This document shows positions 1-64,000 of a DNA stretch of 64,000 nucleotides, in pieces. Every line of letters begins with the position of its first letter. Within the stretch, counting starts at the first letter, position 1. The position numbers and the translations under genes are program-made. The notes beneath the pieces were generated by a model that was given only the letters and a program-made list of their open reading frames with translations, had not been told where the DNA came from and ran no database searches. The stretch is from Okamejei kenojei (Eukaryota): contig CM069156.1 of the NCBI GenBank assembly GCA_035221665.1, positions 22,320,001 to 22,384,000 on the forward strand, read 5' to 3'.

Positions 1-94
1 ACCTGAAGTTAGATAATTTGGTGTTAGTACTACTTGAATTGTAGACTACCTAGGCAGAATACGAGGTGATGTCTCCAAAGAGACTAAGTGCATA

Positions 95-383
95 GGGTGG
101 CACAGTGGTAGAGTTGCTGACTTATAGTGTCAGAGACACAGGTTTGATCCTGACAATGGGTGCTGACTGTACAGAATTCGTATGTCATCTCTGTGACCAT
201 GTGAGTTATCTCCAGGTGTTTCGGTTTCCTTCCACATTCCAAAGACGTGCAGGTGTGTAGGTTAATTGGCTTCTATAAATTGTCCCTAGTTTATAGGGTA
301 GAACTAGTGGACGGGTGATCACTGGTTGGCTTGGACTCGGTAGGCCAAAGGTCCTGTTTCCATGCAGTATCTCTAATTAAACA
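95..383 (+). mobile_element. tRNA-derived V-SINE (HE1-like), degenerate
   Basis: tRNA-like head (GGCACAGTGGTAGAG...GGTTTGATCCTG), V-domain-like core (GGTTTCCTTCCACATTCCAAAGACGTGCAGG) and CR1-like tail (GGCCAAAGGTCCTGTTTCCATGCAGTATCTCTAA). Several related copies occur in the window. Confidence 0.75.
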
Positions 384-8018: not shown

Positions 8019-8704
8019 GTAAAGTGATAGCAAACAAATGAAGCTCCATGAGTTGATGGGTTGGATGTTCAGAGTTTCATCTGATTTTCAGCTTGGTCCC
8101 CATGGGATGATTTGTCAATCAACTTCATATAGAACTGGCGTAGTGAATGTGGGCCTTTCTGGTTTAGCATTTACTTGTTTATACTGCAAAAGCGAAATAA
8201 GTTTTAATTGTGAAATACAATCAAAATGGTAGCAACATGGTAAGCAAGAATGGAGACAAAGTTAATCTTTCAGTTTTCTTTTAATCAAAACTAAATAAAG
8301 CTGGTGATGATGGGTTTTAAATATGTACAGAAGGAATGCAAGGGCTGAGGGGAAGAAAGAACAAAAGGGAAAATCTGAAATGAGACGGGTGAGATTAAAT
8401 GATGACAGAGAAAAGCAGCATTGAATAAATCAATTTAAAACTATTTATTTACAGCAACTGCTCTTCAAGAAAATGGGGCCAGTGACTATTTTCAAGGATT
8501 GTTGTAATTGTAGAATGTGCCAATTCTAGAAATCTTTTCCTAAAGTTCAAGTTTTGTAATTCCAATCAAGAACCTATTTTCTCCATTATTTCTATTAAGG
8601 GTGCCTGGATCAGCTGCTTCTAGTTACGGTAGCTCTAGAGTGTTTTGTTAAAATTGGATTGAACAAAATGAACAACTAGCTCTGGGACTGCACAATAATG
8701 CTAT

Positions 8705-9105
8705 ATAGAAGACTGAGGGGGGATCTTATAGAAACTTACAAAATTCTTAAGGGGTTGGATAGGCTAGATGCAGGAAGATTGTTCCCGATGTTGGGGAGGT
8801 CCAGAGCAAGGGGTCACAGTCTAAAGATAAGGGGGAATTCCTTTAGGACCGAGATGAGGAAAACATTTTTCACAGAGAGTGGTGAGTCTCTGGAATTATC
8901 TGCCACAGAAGGTAGTTGAGGCCAGTTCATTGGCTATATTTAAGGGAGTTAGATGTGGCCCTTGTGGCTAAAGGGATCAGGGGGTATGGAGATAAGGCAG
9001 GTACAGGATACTGAGTTGGATGATCAGCCATGATCATATTGAATGGTGGTGCAGGCTCGAAGGGCCGAATGACCTACTCCAGCACCTAATTTCTATGTTT
9101 CTATG
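8705..9105 (+). mobile_element. CR1-clade (HER1-like) LINE 3' end
   Basis: RRLRGDLIETYKILKGLDRLDAGRLFP C-terminal ORF2 motif; ends in (TTTCTATG)n tail; same family as 11788-14028. Confidence 0.9.
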
Positions 9106-11787: not shown

Positions 11788-14028
11788 AGAAACATAGAAA
11801 CATAGAAATTAGGTGCAGGAGTAGGCCATTCAGCCCTTCGAGCCTGCACCGCCATTCAATATGATCATGGCTGATCATCCAACTCAGTATCCCGTACCTG
11901 CCTTCTCTCCATACCCTCTGATCCCCTTAGCCACAAGGGCCACATCCAACTCACTCTTAAATATAGCCAATGAACTGGCCTCAACTACCCTCTGTGGCAG
12001 AGAGTTCCAGAGACTCACCACTCTCTGTGTGAAAAAAAGTCTTTCTCATCTCGGTCTTAAAGGATTTCCCCCTTATCCTTAAGCTGTGACCCCTTGTCCT
12101 GGACTTCCCCAACATCGGGAACAATCTTCCTGCATCTAGCCTGTCCAACCCCTTAAGAATTTTGTAAGTTTCTATAAGATCCCCTCTTAATCTCCTAAAT
12201 TCCAGAGAGTATAAACCGAGTCTATCCAGTCTTTCTTCATAAGACAGTCCTGACATCCAGGAATCAGTCTGGTGAACCTTCTCTGCACTCCCTCTATGGC
12301 AATAATGTCCTTCCTCAGATTTGGAGACCAAAACTGCACGCAATACTCCAGGTGTGGTCTCACCAAGACCCTGTACAACTGAAGTAGAACCTCCCTGCTC
12401 CTGTACTCAAATCCTTTTGCTATGAAAGCTAACATACCATTCGCTTTTTTCACTGCCTGCTGCACCTGCATGCCTACTTTCAATGACTGGTGTACCATGA
12501 CACCCAGGTCTCGCTGCATCTCCCCTTTTCCTAATCGGCCACCATTTAAATAATAGTCTGCTTTCCTGTTTTTGCCACCAAAGTGGATAACCTCACATTT
12601 ATCCACATTATACTGCATCTGCCAAACATTTGCCCACTCACCCAGCTATCCAAGTCACCTTGCAGTCTCCTAGCATCCTCCTCACAGCGAACACTGCCCC
12701 CAGCTTAGTGTCATCCGCAAACTTGGAGATATTTCCTTCAATTCCCTCATCCAGATCATTAATATATATTGTAAATAGCTGGGGTCCCAGCACTGAGCCC
12801 TGCGGTACCCCACTAGTTACTGCCTGCCATTGTGAAAAGGACCCGTTTACTCCTACTCTTTGCTTCCTGTTTGCCAGCCAGTTCTCTATCCACATCAATA
12901 CTGAACCCTAATAACGTATGCTTTAAGTTTGTATACTAATCTCTTATGTGGGACCTTGTCGAAAGCCTTCTGGAAGTCCAGATATACCACATCCACTGGT
13001 TCTCCCTTATCCACGCTACTAGTTACATCCTCGAAAAATTCCACAAGATTCGTCAGACATGATTTACCTTTTGTAAATCCATGCTGACTTTGTCCAATGA
13101 TTTCACCACTTTCCAAATGTGCTGCTATCCATCTTTAATAACTGACTCTAGCAGTTTCCCCACTACCGATGTTAGACTAACTGGTCTGTAATTCCCCGTT
13201 TTCTCTCTCCCTCCCTTCTTAAAAAGAGGGGTTACATTTGCTACCCGCCAATCCTCAGGAACTACTCCAGAATCTAAAGAGTTTTGAAAGATTATCACTA
13301 ATGCATCCACTATTTCCTGAGCTACTTCCTTAAGTACTCTGGGATGCAGCCTATCTGGCCCTGGGGATGTATCGGCCTTTAATCTATTCAATTTACCCAA
13401 CACCACTTCCCGACTGACCTGGATTTCACTCAATTCCTCCTTTGACCCACAGTCCCCTGCTATTTCAGGCAGATTATTTATGTCTTCCTTAGTGAAGACG
13501 GAACCAAAGTAGTTATTCAATTGGTCCGCCATATCCTTGTTCCCCATGATCAACTCACCTGTTTCTGACTGCAAGGGACCTACATTTGTTTTAACTAACC
13601 TCTTTCTCTTCACATATCTATAAAAACTTTTGCAGTCAGTTTTTATGTTCCCTGCCAGTTTTCTTTCATAATCTATTTTTCCTTTCCTAATTAAGCCTTT
13701 GTCCTCCTCTGCTGGTCTCTGAATTTCTCCCAGTCCTCTGGTATGCTGCTTTTTCTGGCTACTTTGTACGCATCATCCTTTGCTTTGATACTATCCCTGA
13801 TTTCCCTTGTTATCCACGGATGCACTACCTTCCCCGATTTATTCTTTTGCCAAACTGGGATGAACAATTTTTGTAGTTCATCCATGCAGTCTTTAAATGT
13901 CTTCCATTGTATATCCACCGTCAACCCTTTTAGAATTAATTGCCAGTCAATCTTGGCCAATTCACGTCTCATACCCTCAAAGTTACCTTTCTTTAAGTTC
14001 AGAACCATTGTTTCTGAATTAACAATGT
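11788..14028 (-). mobile_element. CR1-clade (HER1-like) LINE, 5'-truncated, about 2.2 kb, frameshifted reverse-transcriptase ORF2
   Basis: [56 protein letters not shown] motifs across ORFs 12187-14080; (GAAACATA)n tail at 11788. Confidence 0.96.
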
Positions 14029-14622: not shown

Positions 14623-16212
14623 CAGTGCATTCAGAAAGTAATCAGACCACTTTTTCCACATTTTGTTATGTTACAGCCTTATTCTAAAATTGATCTTTTT
14701 AAATCATCAATCTACACACAATACCCCATAATACAAAAAGCGAAAACTGGTGTTTAGAAATTTCTGCAAAGTAATTAAAAATATATAACTGAAATATCAC
14801 ATTTACATAAGTATTCAGACCCTTTGCTAAGATACTCAAAATTGAGCTTAGGTTCACCCTGTTTCCATTGATTATCCTTGAGATGTTTCTACAAATTGAT
14901 TGGATTCCACCAGTGGTAAATCAAATTGACTGGACATGATTTGGAAAGGCACACACCTGTCTATATAAGGTTCCACAGTTGACAGTGCACGTCAGAGCAA
15001 AAACCAAGCCATGAAGACGAAGGAATTGTCCGTAGTCCTCCGAGACAGGATTGTGTGGAGACACAGATCTGGGGAAGGGTATAAAACAATTGCAGGCCCC
15101 GAAGAGCACAGTGGCCTCAGTCATTCTTAAATGGAAGAACTTTGGAACCACCAGGACTCTTCAAAGAGCAGATCGCCCGGCCAAACTGAGCAATCGGGAG
15201 AGAAGGGCCTTGGTCAGGGAGGCGACCAAGAACCCGATGGTCACTCGGACAGAGCTCCAGAGTTCCTTGTGGAGATGGAAGAACCTTCCAGAAGGGCAAC
15301 TATATCTGCAGCTCTCCACCAATCAGGTCTTTATGGTAGTGGCCAGATGGAAGTTACTCCTCAGTAAAAGGCACATGACAGCCCGCTTGGAGTTTGCCAA
15401 AAGGCACCTCAAGGACTCTCAGACCATGAGAAACAAGATTCTCTGGTCTGATAAAACCAAGATTGAACTCTTTGGCCTAAATGCCAACCGTCAAGTCTGG
15501 AGGAAACCGCTCATCACCTGGCCAATACCATACCTATAGTGAAGCATGGTGGTGGCAGCATCATGCTGTAGGGATGTTTTTTTTAGCGGCAGGAACTGGG
15601 AGATTAGTCGGGATCGAGGGAAAGATGAACAGAGCAAAGTAGAGAGAGAGATCCTTGATAAAAACCTGCTCCAGAGCATTCTGGACCTCAGACTGGGGCG
15701 TAGGTTCACCTTCTAACAGGGCAATAGCCCTACGCACACAGCCAAGACAATGCAGGAGCGGCTTCGTGACACGTCTGTGAATATCCTTGAGTGGCCCAGC
15801 CAGTGCCCGGACTTGAACCCGATCAAACATCTCTGGAGGGACCTGAAAATAGCTGTGCATCAACGCTACCCCTCCAACCTGACAGAGCTTGAGAGGATCT
15901 GCAGAGAAGAATGGGAGAAATTACCCAAATACAGGTGTGCCAAGAAGACTTGAGGCTGTAATCGCTGCCAAAGGTGCTTCAACAAAGTACTGAGTAAAGG
16001 GTCTGAATACATATGTAAATGTGATATTTCTGTTATTTATTTTTAATTACTTTGCAAAAATTTCTAAACTTGTTTTCGCTTTTTTATTATGGGGTATTGT
16101 GTGTAGATTGATTTAAAAAAAAAAGAGAGAATTTAATCCATTTTAGAATAAGGCTGTAACGTAACAAAATGTGGAAAATGTGAAGGGGTCTGACTACTTT
16201 CTGGATGCACTG
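14623..16212 (+). mobile_element. Full-length, defective Tc1-family DNA transposon with long IR/DR-type TIRs (Passport/SSTN-like)
   Basis: TA|CAGTGCATTCAGAAAGTA ... TACTTTCTGGATGCACTG|TA; TIRs of about 200 bp with internal repeats (AAGTATTCAGACCC); disrupted transposase inside. Confidence 0.95.
15011..15993 (+). pseudogene. Tc1 DD34E transposase pseudogene
   Basis: MKTKELS..., KILWSDKTKIELFG, KHGGGSIML, LEWPSQCPDLNPIKHLW, ...AKGASTKY*; several frameshifts and stops; second catalytic D and the E are substituted. Confidence 0.93.
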
Positions 16213-23990: not shown

Positions 23991-24426
23991 TGGCTGTAAC
24001 ATGGTGAGCATGTTGAATGATTTTCCTGTAAAGGAAAAGGAAAATATAGATGCCTTAAAATGTTTTGAAGCACAGCTAGGATCTTGTTAAAATTAACAAA
24101 AGCAAAATAGCATTGTTTAAATGGTGATAAATGCACATGATCAGCCGATTCCTGTCCTGTGTTCTAAAGTAGGTGAACACATTGCAGATGCCCTTACTCA
24201 ATTCAGGAACTTCCGTTAGATTGGTACAGGATCTCTCTGCTATTGAAGAAAGGTGAGAAAGGAAACTTGTGCAATTATAGACCAGTTAGCCTAACAAGTT
24301 TGTCATTAGTCTGTCATTAATTTTCAAAAAGCAAGTAATTGCAGATTTAAAAAATCTAAAATAACCACAACACAGCTGTAGATGCTCAGAAATTGTGGAG
24401 GGAGGAACAAAGTTAGTGTGCGGATT

Positions 24427-24543
24427 TTGGCCTGAAACGTTGCATATTTCCTTCGCTCCATAGATGCTGCTGCACCCGCTGAGTTTCTCCAGCATTTTTA
24501 TTTCCCTTCGATTTTCCAGCATCTGCAGTTCCTTCTTAAACAC
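24427..24543 (+). mobile_element. Short Penelope-like terminal-repeat (pLTR) insertion
   Basis: Matches the terminal repeat of the PLE at 53411-53944; flanked by TTAGTGTG(C/T)GGATT at 24413-24426 and 24544-24557. Confidence 0.8.
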
Positions 24544-24850
24544 TTAGTGTGTGGATTAATGCCTTTACAACAAAACTGGAACAATGTGAAAATGGGCAAG
24601 CTTTACGTTGCAGAGAAGGTTGGGGACGGGAGAACAAAGGGAATATATCTATGAAATGCTGGAGGTGAAGAGAGTCCAGGCAACACAAGTGCTGCTGGTG
24701 GCGAATGCCTGATAATCAGTTGATCTGTCTTGTAGTGTAAATGTAACTGAGGACAGAAGGGTAATAATGAGAAACTTTAATTTAGAATGATTTAAGATTG
24801 GTTAAAAAAGAATTTGAAAGCTCTGATATTAGCCTCCGGTCAGTTATTAT

Positions 24851-26407
24851 TAGCCAGGATTGTGCCATAAATGCCATGTGCCTTTTCATGCATTTTTTAG
24901 TGATTTCACCAGGATAATACCCTTTCAACGATCGAGTGCCTAAATCAGCCTATTTTTGCCGTTTTGCTAAAAGGTTGTACTATTTTCTCTAGTTGTACCA
25001 TGATTACAATGACATTTTCAATGTTAACACAATTAATGTTAATATTAATGTTATTATTAACGTGTTAACATAGTATAACTTGCAAGCCTGGCCCCTCATT
25101 CCATTTACTGAGTTTTCGAGTGATTTTTGCAAGGCATTCATTGATGCTGGAATTCCACTGTAGAAATTGGAAATCAAATCTCTCTGAGGTTTTTTAGAAA
25201 AATACACAGAGGAACATATACCAAGCGAGTAATCATTGTGGAAAAATTATGTTGACAGCAACTTCAACATTGTTGTGCAGAAAATTAGAGATGAAGTTGC
25301 ATGCAACAAAATATGGATCCCAATAGGTGAGACAACCGATGCTTTGGGGAGATATGTTGCCAATGTGATCATTGGTACACTGGAGGCAAGTCAACCAACA
25401 AAGGAGTATTTGTTGACATTGGAAGTATTGGGCAAGTCAAACAGCTCAACTATTGCTCAGTTGTTTACATCTTCACTTACTGTACTTAGGCCAGAAAGTA
25501 TAAAACACACAAATGTACTTCTGTTTGTGACAAAGTTTTATTCCCCAAAATGTTGTATTTGACATGCTTAGCTCAAGGACTTCATAGAATTACCAAGCAC
25601 AGACATAGCTTGTTTCCAAATGTTAATCGCCGAGGCATTGTCAAGAAAACCTTCCTCAAAATACAGTCACGTGTGCAGTTGTTCAAGGAAATGGCACCCG
25701 AGATTCCGCTACCTCCTCATCCCGTTTTGACTAGGTGGGGTACATGGCTCTCTGCTGTACTCTACTATGCTGCAAATTTTGAAAAGATAAAATAAATTGT
25801 CAACTCTTTTGAAGAAGAAGAATCTGCTGCAGTCAGAATCGTCAGTGAAATCACCAGAAAAAGTCCCTCTTGTTTATTGCTTTCCCACAAGCTACCACTT
25901 CCCTTGAGAAACGTGGCGAAACATTAGTGAATAACTTGCAGGTTTTTAACAAAGTAACTGACGATATTCACAAAGTTCCTGGCAATGTATGTAAAGACAT
26001 ACAAGGAAAATTCGAGAGTGATTTTAGCTAACAAAGATCTTGAAGAAATACAAAACATAGCTAAAGTTCTCAAAGGTAGTTGTAATGCACAAGATATCAA
26101 CATGAATATAGAGTCTGTAGCTTGTTTCGGGTATGCACCAGTGACCTCAGCTCAGGTAGTCAAATTTTTCACAACTGAAGCATATTCTGTCTGACAGACG
26201 GCATAGTGTAACACCAGATAATTTGAAAAAAAAATGCTAGTAATTATGTGCAACCAGGAAACTTTGGTCATTTAATGTAGTATACCTTTATATTATTATT
26301 TTTAACCATATTTTGTTGGTGGAAATAAATGCCTTTTTCGGGCCTTTTTTGTAATTTTATTTTGCCTTTTTCGGAGTTTTGTTTAGTGCCTAAACATCCT
26401 GGCTCTA
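24851..26407 (+). mobile_element. hAT-superfamily DNA transposon (DUF659/CGGBP-related type), internally deleted and decayed
   Basis: 8-bp TSD GTTATTAT/GTTATTAC; termini TAGCCAGGAT and ATCCTGGCTCTA; remnants KIWIPIGETTDALGRYVANVIIGTL, TCLAQGLHR, PVLTRWGTWL, YAPVTSA and a hATC-like C-terminus (LKHILSDRRHS). Confidence 0.85.
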
Positions 26408-26670: not shown

Positions 26671-26974
26671 GTATAGAATGGATTATCTTTAAATGCCCAC
26701 GTTCAAAATTGCATGGCATTAAAGGCACCGACTTGAAATCTTTGTTTTGAGGGGGAGTTTAAGTTTTGTGTAATTTGTCCAATGCACTTGTTATGGACCA
26801 CTTTCCTATTGTGATGCTGTGTGAAATGTCTACACCAAGTGACCTCCAAACATCTGTAGAGTAACTTTATTGTTATGTTGAGTGGGGAATTCATGCTCGG
26901 GATCTGTCTGCAGGTGCTTTTTAAATTTAATGCCTTAATCAGCATTGTTGCCGTGCTGGTTATTTTGAGAAAGA

Positions 26975-27185
26975 AAGATACAAAATGCTGGAGTAATCAG
27001 AGGGTCAGGCAGTATTTCTGGAGAACATGGACAGATGACATTTAGGTTCGGGACTCGACGGATTGAAGAAGGGTCCTGACCCAAATTGTCTCTTATCTTT
27101 GTTCTCGAAACATGCTGACTGACCTGCTGAGTAATGCTAGCACTTTGTTTTTTTTTTGTAAAGCAACTGCAGCTCCTTGTTTCTG
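26975..27185. mobile_element. Old fold-back (head-to-head) Penelope-like pLTR insertion
   Basis: ACAAAATGCTGGAGTAATCAG...GGCAG on the left is the reverse complement of CTGACCTGCTGAGTAATGCTAGCACTTTGT on the right; centre TTGAAGAAGGGTCCTGACCC. Confidence 0.7.
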
Positions 27186-29168: not shown

Positions 29169-30182
29169 TGATCTCACTTGGTTCTCCTCAAAATTCTATC
29201 CCCTACTTCCAAATCCTCCGTCTACGCCGTATCTGCACCCAGGATGAGGTGTTCCTTACCAGGGCATCGGAGATGTCCTCATTCTTTAGGGAACAGGGGT
29301 TCTCTTCCATGATAGATGAGGCTCTCACTGGGGTCTCCTTGATATCCCGCAGCTCTTCTCTTACTCCCCCACCCCCCATTCGTAACAAGGACAGAGTCCC
29401 CCTTGTCCTCACCTTCCACCCCATCAGCCGTCGTATACAACATTTTCGCCACCTCCAAAGGGATCCCACTACTGGCCACATCTTCCCATCTCCACCCCTT
29501 TCTGCTTTCTGCGGAGTCCGTTCCCTCTAACTCCCTGGTCAACTCGTCCCTTCCCGCCCAATACCTTTTCCCAGGTACGTTCCCCTGCAACCGCAGGAGA
29601 TGCAACACCTGTCCCTTTACCTCCCCCCTCGACTGCATCCAAGGACTTAAACACTCTTTCCAGGTGAGGCAGGGGTTCACTTGCACCTCCTCCAACCTCA
29701 TCTACTGTATCCGCTGTTCCAGGTGTCAACTTCTCTACATCGACGAGAACAAGCGCAGGCTCGGCGATCGTTTCGCTGAACTCCTCCGCTCAGTCCATCT
29801 TAACCTATCTGATCTCCCGGTGGCCCAGCACTTCAACTCCCACTTCCATTCCTAATCTGACCTTTCTGTCCTGGGCCTCCTCTATTGTCAGAGTGAGGCC
29901 CAGCGCAAATTGGAGGAACAGCACCTCATATTTCCCTTGGGTAGTTTACACCCCTGCGGTATGAACGTTGACTTCTCTAATTTCAGATAGCCCTTGCTTT
30001 CTCGCTCCTTTCCCTTCCCAGTTCTCCCACTAGTCCTACTGTCTCCGCCTACATTCTATCATTGTCCCACCCACTCCCCTGACATCAGTCTGATGAAGGG
30101 TCTCGACCTGAAACGCCACCATTCCTTCTCTCCAGAGATGCTGCCTCACCCGCTGAGTTACTCCAGCATTTTGTGTCTACTG
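29169..30182 (+). mobile_element. Penelope-like retroelement (GIY-YIG endonuclease region plus pLTR), 5'-truncated
   Basis: RVPLVLTFHP, CNRRRCNTC Cys linker, CTSSNLIYCIRCSRCQLLYI(D)E.KRRLGDRF..H GIY-YIG-like motif, VAQHFN; candidate TSD TGATTTCACA at 29159-29168 and 30183-30192. Confidence 0.88.
30090..30117 (+). ncRNA. Minimal type I hammerhead-ribozyme-like motif in the PLE pLTR (cleavage triplet mutated)
   Basis: CTGATGA-A-GGGT-CTCG-ACCT-GAAA-CGCC. Confidence 0.55.
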
Positions 30183-30663
30183 TGATTTCACAGTCACTGA
30201 TCACAGCCAACTTTTCCTTCTACCTGTTTTTAATTACTTGCATTTGAATGGAGTAGATGGTGTGATGCAGTAACTTGTCCTCTGGATCAAAAGACAAGGA
30301 TGCTGGATAGTAGTCGAGTAATTTAATCACAATGGTACAACTCCTCGGCCACGTTAAAAAGTTGGAATGAACGATCATTTGGACATTGTATTAACTGGTC
30401 GGCATTTGGGCCAAATAATTCCCCAGTTGAAAGTCAGTGTTGGAGTCTTAACACACTTGGACTTAATATATGCAAATCATTATAATCATGCCTTTAATTC
30501 ATTATTTACGTGAACTTATTAAAGGAATTTCTTGTAGTTGCTGTAGACACCTTGTGTCCCGGTAGTTGTTTGTGAAATTAGCAGGGTACTGTTGTAAATT
30601 AACTTTCTCTTGTTCTCATGTTGTTGGCGAGTCGAATTGAAATGTTTCTCTTATCTTTACAAG

Positions 30664-30864: not shown

Positions 30865-30908
30865 GCAAGAGTGCAAAATCAACATTACACAACATTACAT
30901 AGCCTTTA

Positions 30909-31101
30909 GGTAGACAAAAGTGCTGGGGAAACTCAGCGGGTGCAGCAGCATCTATGGAGCGAAGAAAATAGGCAAGGTTTCGGGCCGAAACCCTTCTTCA
31001 GGCTCGAAACGTTGCCCATTTCCTTCGCTCCACAGCACCTGCTGAGTTTCTCCAGCACTTTTGTCTACCTTCGATTTTCCAGCATCTGCAGTTCCTTCTT
31101 T
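30909..31101. mobile_element. Young fold-back Penelope-like pLTR insertion with TSD
   Basis: Inverted arms (GGTAGACAAAAGTGCTGG / CCAGCACTTTTGTCTACC); direct repeat AACATTACATAGCCTTTA at 30891-30908 and 31102-31119. Confidence 0.85.
30974..31001 (-). ncRNA. Minimal type I hammerhead-ribozyme-like motif with intact core boxes
   Basis: Minus strand reads CTGAAGA-A-GGGT-TTCG-GCCC-GAAA-CCTT; stem II is capped by UUCG. Confidence 0.6.
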
Positions 31102-31294
31102 AACATTACATAGCCTTTATACATGCTATGTATTTTTCAGAAAGAAATGGGTTTGGAATTGTTCAGCGTGGTTCATGCTCGGGTGTAAAATCTGAACTCT
31201 AACAGTTAGATCCAAAATCGGTGAAGTACTATCCAACTACTATCTGATGAACCTGCTTACTGCTCAGGCTAACTATTGTAATTATCAAGTACAC

Positions 31295-31455: not shown

Positions 31456-33924
31456 CTGTTTCCTCATCCAGTTATCATTAAATCATCTCTGCCATGTAAA
31501 ATTGACCTTGTCCCAGTTAAAAACATTTCCTCCAGTCTATCTGTCCTTTATCACACCAACTCTACTCTAATTAAATTACTATCATTGCTCCTGTTTTTTT
31601 AATCCTTTACCACTTGCCCAGGTTCATTCCTTAATGTTATCTAGTACTGCCATATCTCATAGTCTTACCGTGTGGATACAGGCCCATTTGGCCCAAACGG
31701 TCCATCTACACTAGTCCCACCTGCCTACTTTGGGATTGTTATATATTTAAGCAAAGGTTGGTGTTGAATAACATTTCAAGAAGCCTGATCCTTCTGTATT
31801 TTTAATCGAGCCCTCCCCGTCCAATTAGGGTAACCAAAATCCCCATCTACCACTTGTACAATTCTATCACTTTCGCAGACTATTGGGGAGCCTGTGGCAA
31901 ACACCAGAAATGTAATTGACTCTTTCTGTTCCTCAGTTCAATTCCTGTGGGCTCATTTATTAATCATCCTTCCGTACAATTGTAATTACTTCCTTAACCT
32001 ACATTGGGATACTACCTCGGACTCCTTCCCACACCACACCCTCTCTGTTATCTATGAGCCCAGTAACCTTGGAATGTCAGCTGCTATTCTTGCTTGCGTT
32101 TTAGCTGTCTTACAGTAATGAACACTGTTTTGTTCTCAGATGTTTATCTATGCCCTCAGTTCCTTGAACTCAGAACTGAGGGCACAGATAAACATCTGAC
32201 AGCAAATCAGAACAAGCTTTATTACCACGATGCCTTGCATTAAAATGCAAACAATTAAACCCTGCTAAAATAAATGTTTCTCCTCCGAGCCTTTGTTTTC
32301 TCAAATCCATGGCTCTGATTTGCAGTCTTTATTACATACATTTTTTGTCTTCTGAAACTGATGCCAATTCCTTTCTTCCTGCCAACCTATTATAAACCTG
32401 GTCGGAGATGCAGCCTGTCTCGTTTTTTCAGATCCCACCATCACACAACATTGGAACATTTGCTAATATCCTTGGAAACCCCCCCCTTCCTGCACTATTT
32501 TCATGATTCTGTATCGGGATACATGGTACAAGTTGTAATCTGGACATGACAACTGTTTTTTGAGGTTGTGTTTTTTAATCTCCCTAACTCAAACATACCA
32601 TGCCATCCTGAAATAATATCTGTGGCCATAGAAACTCCCCCACATCCCTTAAATCCTGTTTGGTCAGTTCCACTCCCTTTCTGTACAGTTGAGTTAACCA
32701 CAGTTCCATGGAATAGACTTTTTACTCCCAAGGACACACTATCTCCAGGTTCGGAGGTAATGCCCATTAGTGTGATGCTAGTCTTGAGGTGATTTCACTA
32801 TGTTGAATGTGTCCTCTGCCATTTTTCCTTTGATGTATTTTACTTCTCTCCCAGATATGCTTATTTCTGAATGATGGATTAAAGTCATTATTTTCATTTG
32901 ACCTCTCGTAAACCAAGCAACACATATCCTTGGTTTACTAAATTCCCATCTTTCATATTCTATGGAAGCTGCACACTGCTCTAAAATTAAATACATGTAA
33001 TTTAGAACCAACATAAATTGGTGATGCCAAAATCTAACTCTGCTAATAGTAATTAACCAAGCACAATAGTCTATGCTCACATTCCAATGTGGATTTGGGA
33101 GGGGTAGGTTTGGAGGTATGGGCGGAGGGGTAGGGCTGGGGTGCATGTGATGAGACGTCACACCAAAGCACACTGGAGCTTCTCATGCCCCCCCTCTGGT
33201 GGATATTAGAAATACCATGGAACTTTTTAAAAAGAACTACAGCATTATCCTTCAAAACAATAATGGTATTTACAACGTTTTTAAATGGCTATAAAACACT
33301 TTAAAATGTCTACAGTTGTGGTTTAATTTGATTTCTGGTTCTGCTATCAGTGAAGCATCGATTTTGTCCAGGTAAATACTTGACTTAACAAATATAATAA
33401 AATTATTTGGGAGTCGAGTCCTTTTTACACACTTGTTGCTTAAGTGTATACACACAAGTACTTTGGCAAAAATTTAGTGAAAGCAATATTGTAATTTTAA
33501 AACATTTTGGTCATCCAAGGACTCAGAGTATTGCATTGATGGGCAATCTACCCAGTATCACAGAAAATATATGGCAACAACAGGAGGCTATGAAGACTGT
33601 GCCACCCCAGGTTTATCCTGCCTTCCATTGTTAACCTACAGGTTATAATTGCACAAGTGTATATCCAAGCGCTACACTGTGGTGAAAATTCCTGCATCTC
33701 CTATCATTTCAGGCAGCAAATTCTGGATCACCATTGGGGACAAGCAACTCAAGCAATGGTGTAACTTGTACTCCTAGGTTTAATCTGATTAGATATTTTG
33801 TGTTTAAAACAATCTGACGATATCTTGTTAGAATATAGAACACCACAGCACTTGAACAGACCCTTCGGTCCACAATGTCTGGGCTGATCATGATGTTAAG
33901 ACCATCACTTATCTATCTGCGCAT

Positions 33925-40383: not shown

Positions 40384-40609
40384 GTAACATACCACTGATT
40401 ACAAAGCTGAATTTGATTATTGTAATTTGTGTATAGAAAAATAGTTTAATTTTGAGTAAAATTATCAATGGATTGAGAGAAAGTTGGTTACCTGGTTTTC
40501 TTTCAATCTGTTAGCATTTCTATTATAAACTGGTGTGATAACTCCACATTCAGATATTATAAAGGCTCACTTGGTCTTTCTTACTGACATGTAATTCATA
40601 GCAAATTAG

Positions 40610-40686
40610 GTAGACACAAAATGCTGGAGTAACTCAGCGGGACAGGCAGCATCTCTGGAGAGAAGGAATGGGTGACGTTTCGGGTC
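40610..40686 (-). mobile_element. Short Penelope-like pLTR insertion truncated inside the hammerhead-like motif
   Basis: Minus strand reads GACCCGAAACGTCACCCATTCC...TTTTGTGTCTAC; CAAATTAG is repeated on both flanks. Confidence 0.75.
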
Positions 40687-41376
40687 ATGTCATGTCAAAT
40701 TAGAGTTGTCTAATGAAGCACCAGTCAGAGGTCAGAACAATGCCAGATTGGTGATGCTATCAACCAGTGTGGGAACACCCACCAAAGACAGCTGTAGCAT
40801 TTTCTGGAAGGATTGGCACCATGCATCGTCGACATTGACTCCACATGTAGCTTGTAAATTTTCATGGTGTTGGTTCAAACATGAGCTGGGAAGATTCATC
40901 TGATTATTATTAAAGCCACAGAGGGCATTTGGCCCATTGGGTCCATGCCGGCTGCTAACGGAGCAGTCACATTTGCTCTCCATTTTCCTCTAACCTTGCA
41001 ACTTACTTTCTCACCATAGCCATCAGTTCCTCTTTGGTTCTTTTGCCATCTACCAACACCCAGGAGTAATTTTCAGCAGCAATTAACCTGCCAGCACACC
41101 CTTAGTGTGTGGATGTCTAATTCTTGCTCGGTTCTGACCAAAGGTCCAAGACCTAAAATGTTAACTTTTTTTCCAAAAATGTTGTCTGACCAGAGTTATT
41201 CGAGCATTTTCTTTTTACTTCAGTTTAACAATGTCTACTTTATTTTTGATTTTCAGCAGTTTATAATGTTCATTAGGTATGAAATTCTCGGGTGTCAACA
41301 AAAGGTGTTGAGAAAAATTGTTCTGCAAAGTAACCTTGGATACCATCTGGTTTCTGATGTTAAAATGTTGTTTCAG

Positions 41377-49300: not shown

Positions 49301-49505
49301 TGCATATTTACAGTGCCTATTTGTTTGAACAGCAAACATGAGTACTTAACATTCCACAGTGCTGAGCATCATGTCATAATGCCATTACGTTTGGTCATGG
49401 TCAGCACAATCTCTCACAGGAATGGAGTACAAGCAGCCTTAAGCCCGATTGTTCACAGATGGAACAGGTGTACATATCCAGGAAGAAGCAATGCATACTT
49501 CAATT

Positions 49506-49584
49506 CTTCCTTTTCATCTCATGGTATTATATACCATCACCTGTCCAAGGTGATGGTATATAATACCATGAGATGAAAAGGAAG
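49506..49584. repeat. Perfect inverted repeat (37-bp stem, 5-nt loop)
   Basis: CTTCCTTTTCATCTCATGGTATTATATACCATCACCT-gtcca-AGGTGATGGTATATAATACCATGAGATGAAAAGGAAG. Confidence 0.97.
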
Positions 49585-49811
49585 GTGCTTTCGGGGATAA
49601 AACCACCTTATGAAGACCGATGCTTATCTTTAGGGTGGGGGGGAGAGAATCAAAAGATTGCAACTAGAATCGGGACTAGCTGCAAGTAGCTCAGCATCCT
49701 TGAGTAAATTTATCAAAGGGTCAATTTGCAGGCATTCAAGAGCAGAGATGCTATGGTGCAGTGGTGCTCTGTGCACAGCAGCAGTTACATTCAGCTGCAC
49801 GCTGTGCAGTA

Positions 49812-53370: not shown

Positions 53371-53410
53371 TTTTCACTAACTCGCCGAGCAAAATTGGTA
53401 ACAAATAAGC

Positions 53411-53944
53411 TTTAAAGAAGGAACTGCAGATGCTGAAAAATCGAGGGTACAAAAATGCTGGAGAAACTCAGCGGGTGCTGCAGCATCTATGGAGCGAAGG
53501 AGATAGGTGACGCTTTGGGCCGAAACCCTTCTTCAGACTGCTAGGGGGTGGAGGGGGGGGGGGGAAGGAAAGGAAAAAGGAAGAGGAGGAGCCCGAAGGC
53601 TGAGGGAGTGGAGACAGCAAGGGTTAACAGAATTGAGAGAATTCAATGTTCATGCCAAGAGGATGCAGACTCCCCAAGCGGAATATGAGGTGCTGTTCCT
53701 CCAATTTGCAGTGTTGCGCACTCTGGCCTTGGAGGAGGCCCAGGACAGAGAGGTCGGATACGGAATGGGAGGGGGAGTTGAAGTGCTGAGACACCGGGAG
53801 GTCGGGTTGGTTATTGCGGACCGAGCGGAGGTGTTCGGCCGAGAAACGATCGCCAAGCCTCCACTTGGTCTCACCAATAGATCAGCTGGCATCTAGAGCA
53901 GCGGATGCAGTAGATGAGGTTGGAGGAGGTGCAGGTGAACCTCT
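53411..53944 (-). mobile_element. Penelope-like element 3' part with pLTR and a hammerhead-like motif (53509-53536)
   Basis: Minus strand encodes CTSSNLIYCIRCSRCQLIY-like and ETKWRLGDRF; pLTR reads CTGAAGA-A-GGGT-TTCG-GCCC-AAAG-CGTC...CTGCAGTTCCTTCTTTAAA. Confidence 0.85.
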
Positions 53945-54068
53945 ACTGGCATCTTGACCTGTTCATTAGCAACAGAACCCCAGTTTAGTTTCACAGATGG
54001 CCTTTACACAGATTAGTCTGCAATATTACGATAAACAAGTAATTTGGCCTATTGAGCAACCAACATAA
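53941..54068 (-). repeat. About 125-bp diverged duplicate of the CYB5D2 intron-1/exon-2 acceptor region (54510-54638)
   Basis: CTCTACTGGC...GACCTGTTCATTAGCAACA.AACCCCAGTTTAGTTTCACAGATGG...GATAAACAAGTAATTTGGCCTATTGAGCAACCAA occurs twice. Confidence 0.93.
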
Positions 54069-55800: not shown

Positions 55801-56244
55801 CTGAAGTGACAGAAAATACACTCTCCCGAAGGAACAACACTACAGTTTCCTCCTAGGTTGCAAGTTCAGTAACTTGACGTTCCATTAGTTCTGAAAGACA
55901 GCTCTTCTTAAAGTGACCGCGCCGCCAGCACCTTCCCTTAAAGTGGCAGTCCACTCTCGCTGTCGCCCTGTAAAATTACCACCTTGGATTCATAGAACAA
56001 CGGCGTGCACGGCATCGTGCAGCAGATGCAAGCTGGAGAGGGTTCTGAGGACAGCCACATATATGAAAGCTTCTACACAAACTACCTCTTTGGAAATAGA
56101 GAAGTCAAGAAAAGTGAAAAATCAGATATATGGACCATGTGAAAGTGACAGCAGGGAATTGGCACCAATGATAATGGCATTTTTTAGTTCTTTGTAAATG
56201 TGGAAAGCAGCACCAATACAATCCAGGCACAATGGAAACAACAC

Positions 56245-56946
56245 CAGACACAAACAAGGATAGACACAAAAAGCTGGAGTACATCAGTGGGGCAAACAGC
56301 ATCTCTGGAAAGAAGGAAGGGTGACATTTCGGGTCGAGAAACTTCTTCAGATTGGTTAGGGATGAGGTAAACGAGTGATATAGACGATGATGGAGAGAGA
56401 TAAAGAACAATGAATAAAGGATATGCAAAAATGTAACGATGATAAAGGGAACAGGCCATTGTTAGCTGTTTGTTGGTTACAAATGAGATGCTAGTGCGAC
56501 CTGGGTGGGGGAGGGAGAGAGGGAATGCCGGGGCTCCCTGAAGTGAGAGTATTCATCCCACTGGGCTGTAAATTGCCCAAGCAAAATATGAGATGCTGTT
56601 CCTCCAATTTGCATTTAACCTCATTCAGACAATGGAGGACACCTAGGACAGAAAGGTCTGTGTGGGAGTGGGATTAAAGTGTTTAGCAACCGGGAGATCA
56701 GGTAGGTTCAGGCAGGCTGAGCGAAGGTGTTCAGCAAAATGATCGCCCAGTCTACGCTTGGTCTCGCCGATGTATAAGAGCCCACATCTTGAACAATGGA
56801 TATGGTAGATGAGGTTGGAAGAGATGCATGTGAACCTCTGCCTAGCGTGAAAGGACTGTCAGAGTCGAGGGAGGAGGTAAAGGGACAGGTGTTGCGTCTT
56901 CTGCAGTTGCAGGGCAAGGCACCTGGGGAGGGGGTGGTTTGGGTAG
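56245..56946 (-). mobile_element. Penelope-like element 3' part with pLTR and a hammerhead-like motif (56323-56350), interrupted by a CR1 LINE
   Basis: PCNCRRRNTCPF and LYIGETKRRLGDHFAEH remnants; CTGAAGA-A-GTTT-CTCG-ACCC-GAAA-TGTC. Confidence 0.85.
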
Positions 56947-59230
56947 GAAACATAGAAAATAGGTGCAGGAGTAGGCCATTCGGCCCTTTGAGCCTGCACC
57001 GCCATTCAATATGATCATGGCTGGTCATCCAACTCAGTATCCTGTACCTGCCTTCTCTCCATACCCCCTGATCCCTTTAGCCACAAGGGCCACATCTAAC
57101 TCCCTCTTAAATATAGCCAATGAACTGGCCTCAACTACCTTCTGTGGCAAGGAATTCCACAGATTCACCACTCTTTGTGTGAAAAATGATTTTCTCATCT
57201 CGGTCCTAAAAGACTTCCCCCTTATCCTTAAAATGTGACCCCTTGTTCTGGACTTCCCCAACATCGGGAAAAATCTTCCTGCATCTAGCATGTCCAACCT
57301 TTAAGAATTTTGTAAGTCTCTATAAGATCGCCTCTCAATCTTCTAAATTCCAGCGAGTACAAGCCGAGTCTATCCAATCTTTCTTCATATGGAAGTCCTG
57401 CTATCCCAGGAATCACTGGTGAATCTTCTCTGTACTCCCTCTATGGCAAGAATGTCTTTCCTCAGATTAGGAGACCAAAACTGTACGCAATACTCCAGGT
57501 GTGGTCTCACCAAGACCCTGTACAACTGCAGTAGAACCTCCCTGCTCTTAGTACTCGAATCCTTTTGCTATGAATGCCAACATACCATTCGTTTTCTTCA
57601 CTGCCTGCTGAACCTGCATGCCTAATTTCAATGACTGGTGTACCATGACACCCAGGTCTCGTTGCATCTCCCCTTTTCCTAATCGGCCACCACTCAGATA
57701 ATAGTCTACTTTCCTGTTTTTGCCACCAAATTGGATAACCTCACATTTATCCACATTCTACTGCATCTGCCATGCATTTGCCCACTCACCCAACCTATCC
57801 AAGTCACCTTGCAGCCTCCTAGCATCCTCCTCACAGCTAACACTGCCCCCCAGCTTCGTGTCATCCGCAAACTTGGAGACGTTGCATTCAATTCCCTCAT
57901 CCAGATCATTAATATATATTGTAAATAGCTGGGGTCCCAGCACTGAGCCTTGCGGTACCCCACTAGTCACTGCCTGCCATTCTGAAAATGACCTGTTTAC
58001 TCCTACTCTTTGCTTCCTGTCTGCCAGCCAGTTCTCTATCCACATCAATAGTGAACCCCCAATACTGTGTGTTTTAAGTTTATATACTAATCTCTTATGT
58101 GGGACCTTGTCGAAAGCCTTCTGAAAGTCCAGATATAACACATCCACAGGTTCTCCCTTATCCACTCCACTAGTTACATCCTTGAAAAATTCTATAAGAT
58201 TCGTCAGACATGATTTACCTTTCATAAATCCATGCTGACTTTGTCCAATGATTTCACCACTTTCCAAATGTGCTGCTATCCCATCTTTAATAACTGACTA
58301 GCATTTTTCCCACTACCGATGTTAGACTAACTGGTCTGTAATTCCCCGTTTTCTCTCTCCCTCCCTTTTTAAAAAGTGGGGTTACATTAGCTACCCTCCA
58401 ATCCTCAGGTACTACTCCATAATCTAAAGAGTTTTCAAAATTATCACTAATCCATCCACTATTTCTGGGGTTACTTCCTTAAGTACTCTGGGATGCAGCC
58501 TATCTGGCTCTGGGGATTTATCGGCCTTTAATCCATTCAATTTACCTAACACCACTTCCCGGCTAACCTGGATTTCACTCAGTTCCTCCATCTCATTTGA
58601 CCCTCGGTCCCCTGCTATTTCCTGCAGATTATTTATGTCTTCCTTAGTGAAGACAGAACCAAAGTAGTTATTCAATTGGTCTGTCATGTGCTTGTTCCCC
58701 ATGATCAATTCACCAGTTTCTGACTGCAAGGAACCTACATTTGTTTCAACTAACCTTTTTCTCTTCACATATCTATAAAAACTTTTGCAGTCAATTTTTA
58801 TGTTCCCTGCCAGTTTTCTTTCATAATCTATTTTCCCTTTCCTAATTAATCCCTTTGTCCTCCTTTGCTGGACTCTGAGTTTCTCCCAGTCCTCTGGGAG
58901 GCTGCTTTTTCTGGCTAATTTGTATGCTTCCCTGATTTTTGATACTGTCCCTGATTTCCCTTGTTATCCACGGATGCACTACCTTCCCTAATTTATTCTT
59001 TTGCCAAACTGGATGCACAATTGTTGTAGTTCATCCATGCAGTCTTTAAATGCCTTCCATTGCATTCCACCGTCAACCCTGTAAGAATCACTTGCCAGTC
59101 TATCTTGGCCAATTCACGTCTCATACTCTCAAAGTTACCTTTCTTTAAGTTCTGAACCCTTGTTTCTGAATTAACAATGTCACTCTCCATCCTAATGAAG
59201 AACTCAACCATATTATGGTCACTCTTGCCC
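56947..59230 (-). mobile_element. CR1-clade (HER1-like) LINE, 5'-truncated, about 2.3 kb
   Basis: RT motifs [44 protein letters not shown] and the endonuclease end GKSDHNMVEF; closely similar to 11788-14028. Confidence 0.96.
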
Positions 59231-60371: not shown

Positions 60372-60650
60372 TAGAGATAGAGCGTAGAAACAGGCCCATC
60401 GGCTCCGCTCCATCCAGCGATCCCTGCATATTAACACTTTCCTACCCACACGTAGGACAATTTTTACACTTACCAAGCCAATTTACCTACAAATCTGTAT
60501 GCCTTTGGAGTGTGGGAGGAAACCGAAGATCTTGGAGAAAACCCACGGAGGTGACGGGGAGAATGAACAAACTGAACAGACAGCACCTGTAGTCGGGATC
60601 GAACCTGGGTCTCTGGCGCTGTGAGGCAGGAACCCTACTGCTGCTGCCGA
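60372..60650 (-). mobile_element. V-SINE (HE1-like)
   Basis: Reverse complement of the SINE: TTTGGAGTGTGGGAGGAAACCG, GGGATCGAACCTGGGTCTCTGGCGCTGTGAGGCAG; tail AGAGATAGAGCGTAGAAACAGGCCC. Confidence 0.8.
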
Positions 60651-60879: not shown

Positions 60880-61860
60880 TGTGTGGGAAGGAACTACAGG
60901 TGTTGGTGTACATCAAAGATAGACACAAAATACTGCAGTAACTCAGTGGGACAGGCAACATCTCTGAATAGAAGAATGGATGATGTTTTGGGCCAAGACA
61001 CTTCTTCCGACTGAGAGTCAGGGGAGAGGGAGACACAGTGATGAGGAAGGGGAAGGTGTCAAAATGGGACATCAAAAGAGATGGGGTTCAAGCAAAATGT
61101 AGAATAGATCATTGCTAACATCTAAGGGAGAAGATAACAAAACAAACAGATCAAATGTAATCAGGGAGACTGGTCGGAGAACTAGGAAGGGGAAGGCATG
61201 AAAAGAGAGGGAAAGCAAGGGTTACTTGAAGTTAGAGAAGTCAATGTTCATACCGTTGGGGTGTAAGTTGCCCAAGCGAAATATTTGGTGCTGTTCCTCC
61301 AATTTGCGCTGGGCCTCACTCTGACAATGGAAGTGGCCCAGGACAGAAAGGTCAGTGTGGGAATGGGAGGGGGAGTTAACCAGAAATCAGGTAGGCTTAG
61401 ACAGACAGAGCGGAGGTGTTCAGCGAAATGATCGCCAAGCCTGCACTTGGTCTCGCCTATAAATAGGAGTCCACACCTGGAACAACGGATACAATAGATG
61501 ACGGTGCAAGTGAACCTCTGCCTCACCTGAAAAGACTGTCGGGGTCCTGGAGTGGGGGGGGGGTAAAGGGACAGGTGTTGCATCTCCTGCGATTGCAAGA
61601 GAAGGTACGGGGGGGGGGGGGGGGGGGGGGATTGGGTGGTGAGGGACAAGTTAACCAGGGAGTTGTGGATGGAACGGTCTCTGCGGAAGGCGGTAAGGGG
61701 TGGAGATGGGAGATGTGGCAAGTGCTGGGATCCCGTTGGGAGGTGGTGAACATGTCAGAGGATTAAGGGCTGTATGCGACTGCTGATGGGGTGAAAGGTG
61801 AGGACAAGGTGGGGGGGGGACTCTGACCCTGTTGCGATTGGAGGGAGGGGGCGCAAGAGA
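60880..61860 (-). mobile_element. Penelope-like element (GIY-YIG region plus pLTR)
   Basis: VIYCIRCSRCGLLFIGETKCRLGDHFAEHLRSV, CNRRRCNTCPF, LVLTFHP; degenerate hammerhead-like motif near 60982-61010. Confidence 0.88.
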
Positions 61861-62162
61861 GATGGCTTGGGGATAGGGCCAGTGTGCGCATGGACCAGGC
61901 ATTGCTCGCCCGAGCCCATTAGAGAGGGAGGGAGGCGGGCGGGCATATCTGGGCCCGTGTCAGTCAGTGACCATGGTTACGCCTTGAATCTGGAGGAAGT
62001 GGGAGCAGGCAGTCAAAGGTGTTAAGAGTAAGGAGGAGAGTGTTGGTAGAGGGGGAATTGGCTGGTTCTGCAGTCGGAAAAGAAACGTAGGGCTTTAAAG
62101 GGCATCCCTGGCGGCGGCCGCCGGGCCGTGAGCCGCTCGAGAGAAATCCCGCGGTGGGGGAA

Positions 62163-62290
62163 GGAGCCGGAAGTGAGGCAGGCAAGGGGCCGTCGTGAAG
62201 CAGCCGGAGCCGGAAGTGAGACAGGCAAGGGGCCGTCGTGAAGCAGCCGGAGCCGGAAGTGAGGCAGGCAGGGGCCGTCGTGAAGCAGCC
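62163..62290 (+). repeat. 43-bp tandem repeat x3; each unit contains CCGGAAGTG (ETS/GABP motif)
   Basis: Units start at 62163, 62206 and 62249: GGAGCCGGAAGTGAG(G/A)CAGGCA(A)GGGGCCGTCGTGAAGCAGCC. Confidence 0.95.
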
Positions 62291-62464
62291 GGAGCCGGAG
62301 CCGGAAGCGGACAGCGGGCAGCGGACAGTAGCTGCAGGGACCGGCCGACGGGCGGGACAGTGGGACAGCGGGCGGCAGCGGTCTCGGCGCCGTGGATTGA
62401 GGGCGGGGACCCGGCTCAGTGATCGGCGAGAGGCCGGGGACGGGGAGAGAGCGGCCAGGCCGGC

Positions 62465-62917
62465 ATGGGCAACGTCGACAGCGTCGGGGCGGAGCAGCCC
62501 GACTGCGCCGAGGAGGAGGAGGACGAGGACGAGGAGGAAGAGGACGAGCTGGGCCCGGACACTGAGCGAGGAGGCCCCGCCAAGGCCGGCTTCCCGGCGC
62601 CGGGAGGGGGCCCGGAGGCAGCGGACGGAGGCCACGTCCCGGGCCCCAGCTCCGGCTCCGGCCCCGGCCCCAGCCTGAGCCTGAGCCTGAGCCTGCGGTG
62701 CGGGCCCAGCCCCGACGCCCTGTTCCAGCACCAGCGGCTGCGGGAGGCGGCGGCCAAGGTGCGGGACGAGGTGGCGGAGAACGTGGTGCAGCAGCATCAC
62801 AGCCACTTGATCCGCTGGCTGGAGGAGCGCCTGGCCCGCGGCGACGAGACCGTCCGACTGGCGCAGTTCTGCGACCTGCTCGCCACCCGCTTCGCCGTCA
62901 AGGAGGAATGCGAGGAG
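62465..62917 (+). CDS. ZZEF1: ZZEF1 first coding exon; the gene continues beyond the window
   Basis: Kozak GGCATGG; MGN start; HHSHLIRWLEERLARGDETVRLAQFCDLL...EECEE |gtgagg resembles the ZZEF1 N-terminus; head-to-head with CYB5D2 as in mammals. Confidence 0.88.
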
Positions 62918-63290
62918 GTGAGGGAGGCGGTGGGACGGTGCGGGAAGATATAGCTAGGGCTATATATGATGTATGATTAATAAAGTAGTGAAGACCTTAA
63001 GGTGTCTTTTGAAACTGGGAGAGGAGGGTGCGGGGAATCAGGAGTGGGAGAGTGGAGGGGATGGGGACCTTGGGGGTGGGGGGTTCTGAGGGTCGACGTT
63101 AGGGGACGAGGTGGAATGAAGGGGGTCTGAGAGGGTCAGGCGGGGTGAGTGGAGGAGACGTGAGGTCAGGCGGGTGGTGGCTCCCGATCCGGGCGAGGGC
63201 TGGGATGGTGTAGGGGGAGTCCGGGGAGTCAGGAGTGGTAGGTGAGGCGTGTTGAACCCGGGGGTGTGATTCCACTGACAGTGGCCTATG

Positions 63291-63472
63291 TGTTTAAGAA
63301 GGAACTGCAGATGCTGGAAAATCGAAGGTACACGAAAATGCTGGAGAAACTCAGCGGGTGCAGCAGCATCTACGGAGCGAAGGAAATAGGCAACGTTTCG
63401 GGCCAAGACGTTGCTTATTTCCTTCGCTCCATGGATGCTGCTGCACCCGCTGAGTTTCTCCAGCATTTTTGT
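63291..63472. mobile_element. Young fold-back Penelope-like pLTR insertion with TSD
   Basis: Inverted arms of about 70 bp (AAAATGCTGGAGAAACTCAGCGGGTGCAGCAGCATC / GATGCTGCTGCACCCGCTGAGTTTCTCCAGCATTTT); flanks GTGG(C/T)CTATGTGTT at 63281-63294 and 63471-63484. Confidence 0.85.
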
Positions 63473-64000
63473 GGTCTATGTGTTATCCTCCCGGTACTGA
63501 CCCGCCGCATGGGTGAATCGCGGAGCCGCTACCCGCGAGTGGTTTAAGGAACTCTCCCCGAGCAAATTCGGAAAACACTCTTGTTTCAACGCGCGGTTAT
63601 CGTTCGAAGAAAAGAGTAGTTAAATATATTGGACATTTGGAAGGTTATTTCAAAACTTAGAAGAGCAGATTTAATCATTTATACTTTCCTTGGTAGGATG
63701 TAATCGAATGCCATCAAAAATCTGTTTTAACCTAGTTTGACAGAACGATTAATAGTAAACTGCACGCCGAGTTTTGGGAATGTATTTACACTTGCTCTTC
63801 TGGAATAATTGAGCAGGTCTCCAGGGGACATCTCTTACCCACACTGTTCCAAGCTGCCAAACCTATTGCCCCGCTGAGTACAAGCCAGTCTCTGACAGCA
63901 GGTGTCAATAGCAACAATAGCCTTTGATAGGCTACTGAGACCTTGTTTACTAAGCTGCGGTTAAAGGATTGCAGTTGAAGGGATACAACTATTATTGCAT

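Follow-up and report, generated by a model that had tools for sequence, protein, structure and literature searches.

A stretch of 64,000 nucleotides of skate DNA (Okamejei kenojei, contig CM069156.1, positions 22,320,001 to 22,384,000; hereafter the window) holds decayed minimal hammerhead ribozymes of a Penelope-like element (PLE), and about half of the copies of that family begin at the 5' edge of the motif, likely because the RNA that is copied starts there uncut. We hold this account to be probable as a whole. That the motifs are PLE minimal hammerheads is close to certain; the reading of the 5' pile-up as a transcription start, which is drawn from sequence, stands only somewhat above an even chance. 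The ribozyme find itself is ordinary, in that the motif class is known and the window copies are decayed. Reports of PLE minimal hammerheads go back to 2014 and include fish, coelacanth, frog and reptiles; literature searches found no published PLE hammerhead from a cartilaginous fish, and a retrozyme preprint covers a single chondrichthyan, with supplements that could bear on the point. The preliminary description of this DNA correctly recognized the motif class, overstated covariation and host effect, and leads to a modest mechanistic lead. Some 40,000 near-identical young copies record the start and end points of reverse transcription, and these end points argue against cut RNA as the template. 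An RNA start at the edge of the ribozyme would bear on what PLE hammerheads do.

Decayed hammerheads in the window and their host genes

Positions are counted from C3 of the core (position 0), and the predicted cut falls between +27 (H17) and +28. The window contains 15 sites of one repeat, and all four hammerhead-like motifs previously picked out are copies of it (Table 1), with letters, coordinates and strands of the 28-mers exactly as reported. Half-motifs GAAACGT(C/T) were likewise recovered at 24434(+) and 40674(-), while the third, given as 63402, lies at 63392-63399(-). Core mutations had been ascribed to most copies; all four proved to be mutated, and none passes a minimal-hammerhead descriptor. 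An Rfam 15 scan of the window returned no hammerhead match at E<=10 and miRNA-like matches to fold-backs instead. In the copy at 30090, the G·U pair reflects one C>T change in a CpG. GIY-YIG-type ORFs end upstream of the cores at 30090, 53509, 56323 and 60982, the last of which closes a PLE fragment extending to ~61692. Judged by their sequence, the window motifs are mutated and likely inactive copies of a PLE minimal hammerhead. The focal core at 30974 lies in a fold-back insertion with a minus arm from about -2 to +91 and a plus arm from about +15 to +130 (the tail). It reads CCUU at its end, the G16.2>C change having removed the ACGU palindrome.

Table 1. Copies of the PLE repeat in the window, with associated features and core changes
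Feature	Position	Strand	Remarks
Head-to-head (fold-back) pLTR insertion holding the focal core	30909..31107	both	
Focal minimal hammerhead core, UUCG-loop subfamily	30974..31001	-	G16.2>C
Target-site duplication, left copy, 18 bp	30891..30908	+	
Target-site duplication, right copy, 18 bp	31102..31119	+	
5'-truncated PLE	29195..30199	+	RT-region end, CxxxxCxxC linker, GIY-YIG region, 3' UTR, pLTR
Hammerhead core	30090..30117	+	U16.1>C, C11.1>U; ~100 nt past ORF end
5'-truncated PLE	53407..53947	-	GIY-YIG region, 3' UTR, pLTR, tail
Hammerhead core, predicted dead	53509..53536	-	G12>A + A15.1>G
5'-truncated PLE fragment	56235..56932	-	
Hammerhead core	56323..56350	-	Stem II mismatched at two positions
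Damaged core	~60982..61009	-	U4>G, G12>A, G16.2>A; absent from the preliminary description
Damaged core	~27063..27090	+	Arm of head-to-head pair 26965-27181; absent from the preliminary description
Fold-back pLTR insertion	63286..63473	both	Arms start near +10 (inside stem II); without CUGA box
Solo pLTR stub	24422..24548	+	Start near +8
Solo pLTR stub	40608..40696	-	3' half of motif only

Other features of the window were noted in passing. Near-perfect hairpins with weak scores against Rfam miRNA models, likely fold-back insertions, occur at 32123-32212, 49483-49608 and 25021-25071. A LINE-type RT repeat is present in copies 91-96% identical (11797-13700, 56947-58855 and 8703-9105), and the transposase fragments at 15036-15950 (+) are presumably Tc1/mariner-like.

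The plus strand bears ankyrin-repeat exons near 30.6 kb and near 34.3 kb, the minus strand a cytochrome-b5-domain exon at 55.2-55.9 kb, and their Pfam domains agree with the gene names ANKFY1 and CYB5D2 suggested earlier. The exon before the focal insertion apparently ends at a GC donor (CAG|GCAAGA; 30865-30870, plus strand), and a GC-rich island with long open frames at ~62000-62950 is likely exon 1 of a gene that faces the cytochrome-b5-domain gene head-to-head. It had been suggested that some copies lie in the sense strand of introns of these genes. This holds for 30090(+) in the ankyrin-repeat gene and 53509(-) in the cytochrome-b5-domain gene; the focal copy at 30974(-) is antisense to its host, and the core at 56323(-) sits upstream of 55852, where the first coding exon lies. 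Two sense intronic copies, and an intact motif that is very common across the genome, are what would be expected if such copies cleave host pre-mRNA and thereby regulate host genes. We consider this exceedingly improbable: both sense copies carry core changes (Table 1), the focal copy lies in the wrong orientation, copies decay neutrally, and single minimal motifs showed no cutting in vitro (PMC4209133). Since every window copy is mutated, cutting of host pre-mRNA by these copies is not supported.

The element and its family motif

The attribution of the motifs to Penelope-like pLTRs is borne out by full-length copies of 3.95 kb, each pLTR of which carries the motif. Of 30 loci that reach the 5' region, 7 extend from the 5' pLTR into the ORF, and in 4 of 5 re-examined full-length copies the two motifs lie 3,935-3,969 nt apart. 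The ATG of full-length copies is at +163 from C3 and, in most, the stop is 239 nt before the second motif; the motif follows the stop codon of the ORF (RT + GIY-YIG) at ~90-245 nt, and a further one precedes the ATG by 163 nt. This single ORF of ~1,190 codons has a Pro-rich N-terminal part followed by RT and, at the C-terminus, a GIY-YIG domain. For the longest relative retrieved, Pfam gave matches to RVT_1 (E 2.6e-6) and to GIY-YIG (E 0.003) that are each below its cut-off, and it gave none for two short window fragments or the N-terminal 624 aa of a full-length ORF. The longest relative also has a CNRKKCNTC linker, which follows the CxxxxCxxC pattern; a CX2-5CxxC linker marks the Neptune/Nematis clades in the part of the published account drawn on here (PMC8557442). 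Sequence thus points to a likely Neptune-clade Penelope-like retrotransposon, an assignment made from the linker alone, a motif found in Nematis as well. Hallmarks of EN+ PLEs are present, namely pLTRs, an inverted 5'-truncated copy, a 30-40 bp tail and a TSD.

Within the 5' UTR, a pyrimidine tract is followed by AG|ATG (+50), which opens an upstream ORF of 42 codons (L168:755-868, +50..+163). It recurs in L143, L160, L165 and L169, the AG-ATG being conserved across subfamilies, and the main ATG (+161) shares bases with a donor-like AAG|GTATG; the 5' UTR possibly holds a uORF or an intron. At another locus (L313), the downstream part of the young subfamily is joined to a C-rich 3' UTR resembling that of another subfamily, possibly through a template switch at the hammerhead.

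The family is very abundant. Searched as a degenerate 27-nt pattern, the family motif is matched exactly at 60,464 places in the 2.76-Gb genome; the reversed pattern is matched at 0. With an anchor confined to sequence downstream of the motif, 243 copies turned up in a sample of 80 stretches of 10 kb at regular spacing, from which a genome total of roughly 0.8 million copies may be extrapolated, fold-back arms being counted twice. A strict minimal-hammerhead descriptor, the kind of check suggested earlier, gave 29 matches in this 800-kb genome sample, more than chance would give, since each of 10 dinucleotide shuffles yielded 0-1; the 64-kb window yielded 0.

Subfamilies were compared by aligning 150 of 207 copies tried, 125 of which grouped into 5 clusters with 5 or more members each. 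As had been expected of the consensus, the CUGANGA, GAAA and UH boxes are kept: 0 of 13 core positions vary among the clusters, compared with 15 of 59 downstream (Fisher p=0.057), a contrast that falls short of p<0.05. The five motif positions that do vary are two loop bases, 11.4 (U-A/U·G), H17 (C/U) and 1.1 (U-A/U·G), all tolerated by the fold. Two other features anticipated for the motif were also recovered. The extra residue between A9 and G10.1 is A in 144 of 152 copies, and the ACGU palindrome replaces helix III in all clusters. Stem I has 2 bp only (U-A or U·G, then G-C), a length inside the published range. At the G10.1-C11.1 pair, G is kept in 126 and C, which belongs to a CpG, in 111 of 152 copies. 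Individual genomic copies decay at an equal rate in core (6.7%) and flank (6.0%).

The claim of compensatory stem II variants fared less well. Differences between subfamilies are one-sided (at the closing pair, U-A vs U·G) or lie in the loop, and none of the five variable positions is changed on both sides among the 5 clusters. Two-sided covariation was considered at pair 10.2-11.2, where 608 copies genome-wide differ on both sides, and was ruled out: among the first 30 of these, 19 are A·A mismatches and 9 still pair. With one-sided changes at the variable positions and mostly A·A at the double ones, the term compensatory is unsupported. The subfamilies are too close for this comparison to have power, and no more divergent PLE family was found in this genome to supply covariation.

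Folding of -3..+33 yields a predicted minimum-energy structure of -5.3 kcal/mol in which bases after the cut pair with the 5' strand of stem II. The hammerhead fold is predicted at -4.2 kcal/mol on a stretch 3 nt shorter, and the competing fold would thus be slightly more stable. In all subfamilies the bases after the cut site (RCCY, +28..+31) resemble stem II's 3' strand (RCCC); this mimicry (+8..+11 / +28..+31) permits an alternative, inactive pairing, perhaps a folding switch.

Copy ends and the origin of the 5' pile-up

The 5' ends were first resolved in an unbiased sample of 204 of 239 extracted copies, with a few loci counted twice. While 37 of the 204 continue upstream and only 7 start at -29..-9, 101 start at -8..+5; of the rest, 39 start at +6..+27, +28..31 is empty and 20 start still further downstream. 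Some of the starts at -8..-4 probably represent older subfamilies with a 3' UTR missing from the library. This problem is avoided in the young subfamily, which has 39,734 exact anchors and for which the first 100 on one contig (C1) were analysed, one locus twice. Among these, 29 continue upstream, 4 start at -35..-12, 53 at -7..+4, 11 at +6..+18 and 3 at +29..31, with no start at +28; the 3' ends fall at +90..96 (62 copies) and +126..134 (29). In the UUCG-type subfamily of the focal copy, 16 of 30 start at -9..+5. Junctions counted genome-wide with 35-letter patterns, indel variants included, number 127 at -12, 3,110 at -3, 112 at +25, 244 at +28 and 459 at +31, and their ratios are approximate because the patterns differ in subfamily scope. 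The 5' ends are thus spread across ~12 nt and do not fall on one base.

A cleavage footprint was sought at +28 and rejected, as the counts rise from +25 to +31 with no peak over neighbours. Many of the +31 matches derive from short tandem arrays. These rare arrays consist of 57-64 bp pLTR units that start at +31 or +28 and lack the catalytic core (C4:11448775-11448981, C2:93578893-93579041, C2:137651883-137652108 and C6:118521266-118521418), and likely arose by repeated microhomology jumps. Perfect fold-backs with arms meeting at the predicted cut site were seen at C1:77127298-77127361, C1:106932185-106932248 and C2:50948764-50948827; they occur at +31 too and are therefore not specific to the cut site. 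A splice acceptor (CAG at -4..-2) was also considered as the origin of the pile-up and rejected, because the sequences upstream of the copies are unrelated to each other. The 24 sequence runs considered all consist of contigs; in four of them the signal tracks genomic copy number and is DNA-like, and so has no bearing on expression, start or splicing. The same repeat end was observed at very high depth in two organisms (X1, X3 and X4 from organism A, X5 from organism B), with the same loose ends at -4.

The reading that we slightly favour is that RNA polymerase II would start at YCAGTCT, with A at -3, which we take to resemble an initiator; ACGT follows ~27-30 nt past this proposed start. Reverse transcriptase would then use the nicked target to prime on the tail region, and its cDNA would extend over ~95-135 nt as far as the 5' end of the RNA. 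The cDNA may next join the target, giving a solo stub, or alternatively fold back to give a head-to-head pair or jump to the 3' part of the RNA to give long copies. By analogy with other PLEs, the ribozyme of master elements may cut after GUC/GUU, if weakly, and would do so solely in dimeric form or with the protein of the element bound. It would likely trim the 3' end of read-through RNA, in the 3' pLTR of master transcripts, and be dispensable for insertion.

It is also possible, although we would not expect it, that the pile-up marks a hotspot at which RT stalls or switches template on the folded motif within a longer read-through RNA. Ends that cover -7..+5 and thin out by +20, and an inverted arm upstream in 51 of the 204 sampled copies, would suit such stalling, as would a weak cap-G signal: among the first 100 junctions at -3, a hand count, confounded by inverted junctions, places G next to ~39, and a clear extra non-templated G precedes the start in 1 of 10 TSD-resolved copies. 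The abrupt upstream drop in the unbiased sample and between -3 and -12 genome-wide is less easily explained by a stall, and the peak base suits an initiator-like context.

Alternatively, the block could be kept chiefly as an internal promoter, with an initiator at -5..+1 and ACGT as a downstream element at ~+27..+30 from the start, and the hammerhead could be a vestige no longer cutting in this lineage. Conservation is sharp from -4 and the upstream 3' UTRs vary in length and sequence among subfamilies, 5' ends accumulate at this conservation edge, and no cut-site footprint is present. Helix I has only 2 bp, a competing fold is predicted, and the internal promoter element of D. virilis Penelope, RGACGTGY, has an ACGT core in the part of that account used here (PMC2377424). 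A vestige is nevertheless doubtful. The 13 core positions are all retained, as are the extra base and the pairing in stem II, the variants at 10.4/11.4, 1.1 and H17 are ones that a hammerhead tolerates, 2-bp helices I occur in other published PLE motifs, and a related anole motif cuts with protein added, according to the portion of the anole work considered.

A further proposal, put forward tentatively and judged unlikely on balance, is that the hammerhead acts as internal promoter region and terminal redundancy of the RNA at once, as an R region does. Transcription would start 3 nt before the core, the 5' copy would stay uncut and the 3' copy would be cut, so that the 31 nt from start to cut would act like retroviral R and a short 'strong-stop' cDNA would jump to the RNA's 3' end. 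The solo and fold-back stubs, in their hundreds of thousands, would then represent jumps that failed. If true, this would supply the missing role of PLE hammerheads in transposition.

Finally, the short copies might form a family of their own, non-autonomous and SINE- or retrozyme-like, which would spread by means of the ribozyme it carries. Solo units of 90-135 bp with TSDs are indeed common, and retrozymes have been reported as pLTR derivatives, one chondrichthyan included, in the part of the preprint available (bioRxiv 10.64898/2026.07.22.740005). However, junctions vary from copy to copy, units do not run from cut site to cut site and end instead at PLE tail positions, and their diagnostic bases agree with ORF-linked subfamilies, all of which makes an independent family very unlikely.

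Comparison with known systems

The metazoan PLE hammerhead consensus is NNN CUGANGAH G..C GAAAN NUH NNN (PMC4209133 Fig. S3), and the skate-family motif fits it box for box, which places it in a known motif class. Shared features include CUGANGAH, G10.1-C11.1, GAAA-C-G-U-H, the extra base after A9 and a short helix I, whose length of 2 bp is also that seen in D. virilis and Culex, together with a motif in both pLTRs, mostly single truncated copies and opposite-strand pairs (PMC4209133). Stem II is 4 bp in the skate family compared with 7-8 bp in schistosome motifs, and the exact matches counted above exceed the ~4,000-9,000 copies of coelacanth and Xenopus (PMC4209133). The supplement text of that study, in the portion searched, contains no shark or skate terms.

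The closest functional comparison is with Poseidon PAc of Anolis carolinensis, as far as the consulted part of that study goes (Frangieh 2024, PMC11167929). In the anole PLE the hammerhead cuts only with protein, hammerhead mutants show normal insertion and the cut site is not the end point of any read, and the tail arises from two internal RT start sites ~35 nt apart. The skate family is alike in the two 3'-end clusters, which match such a tail, in a hammerhead near the ORF start and in showing no sign of cut RNA as template. It differs in that its ATG lies 163 nt after C3, whereas that of PAc lies inside the hammerhead, in the Neptune/Nematis-type linker of its protein, and in the genomic 5'-end pile-up at the hammerhead edge, of which the PAc account, to the extent covered, describes none.

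With Neptune/Nematis EN+ PLEs, the family shares the C-terminal GIY-YIG and the CX2-5CxxC linker, as well as partial tandems, an adjacent inverted 5'-truncated copy, a 30-40 bp tail and TSDs, on the evidence of the passages used from those papers (Craig 2021, PMC8557442; Arkhipova 2013, PMC3846280); its ORF is distinguished from theirs by its length (~1,190 codons) and by a Pro-rich N-terminal part without a Pfam match. Non-LTR retrozymes, as described in the accessible part of the preprint (bioRxiv 10.64898/2026.07.22.740005), are likewise short pLTR-derived sequences with a type I hammerhead, but they are tandem units delimited by the ribozyme, whereas the skate-family copies are dispersed stubs with individual junctions.
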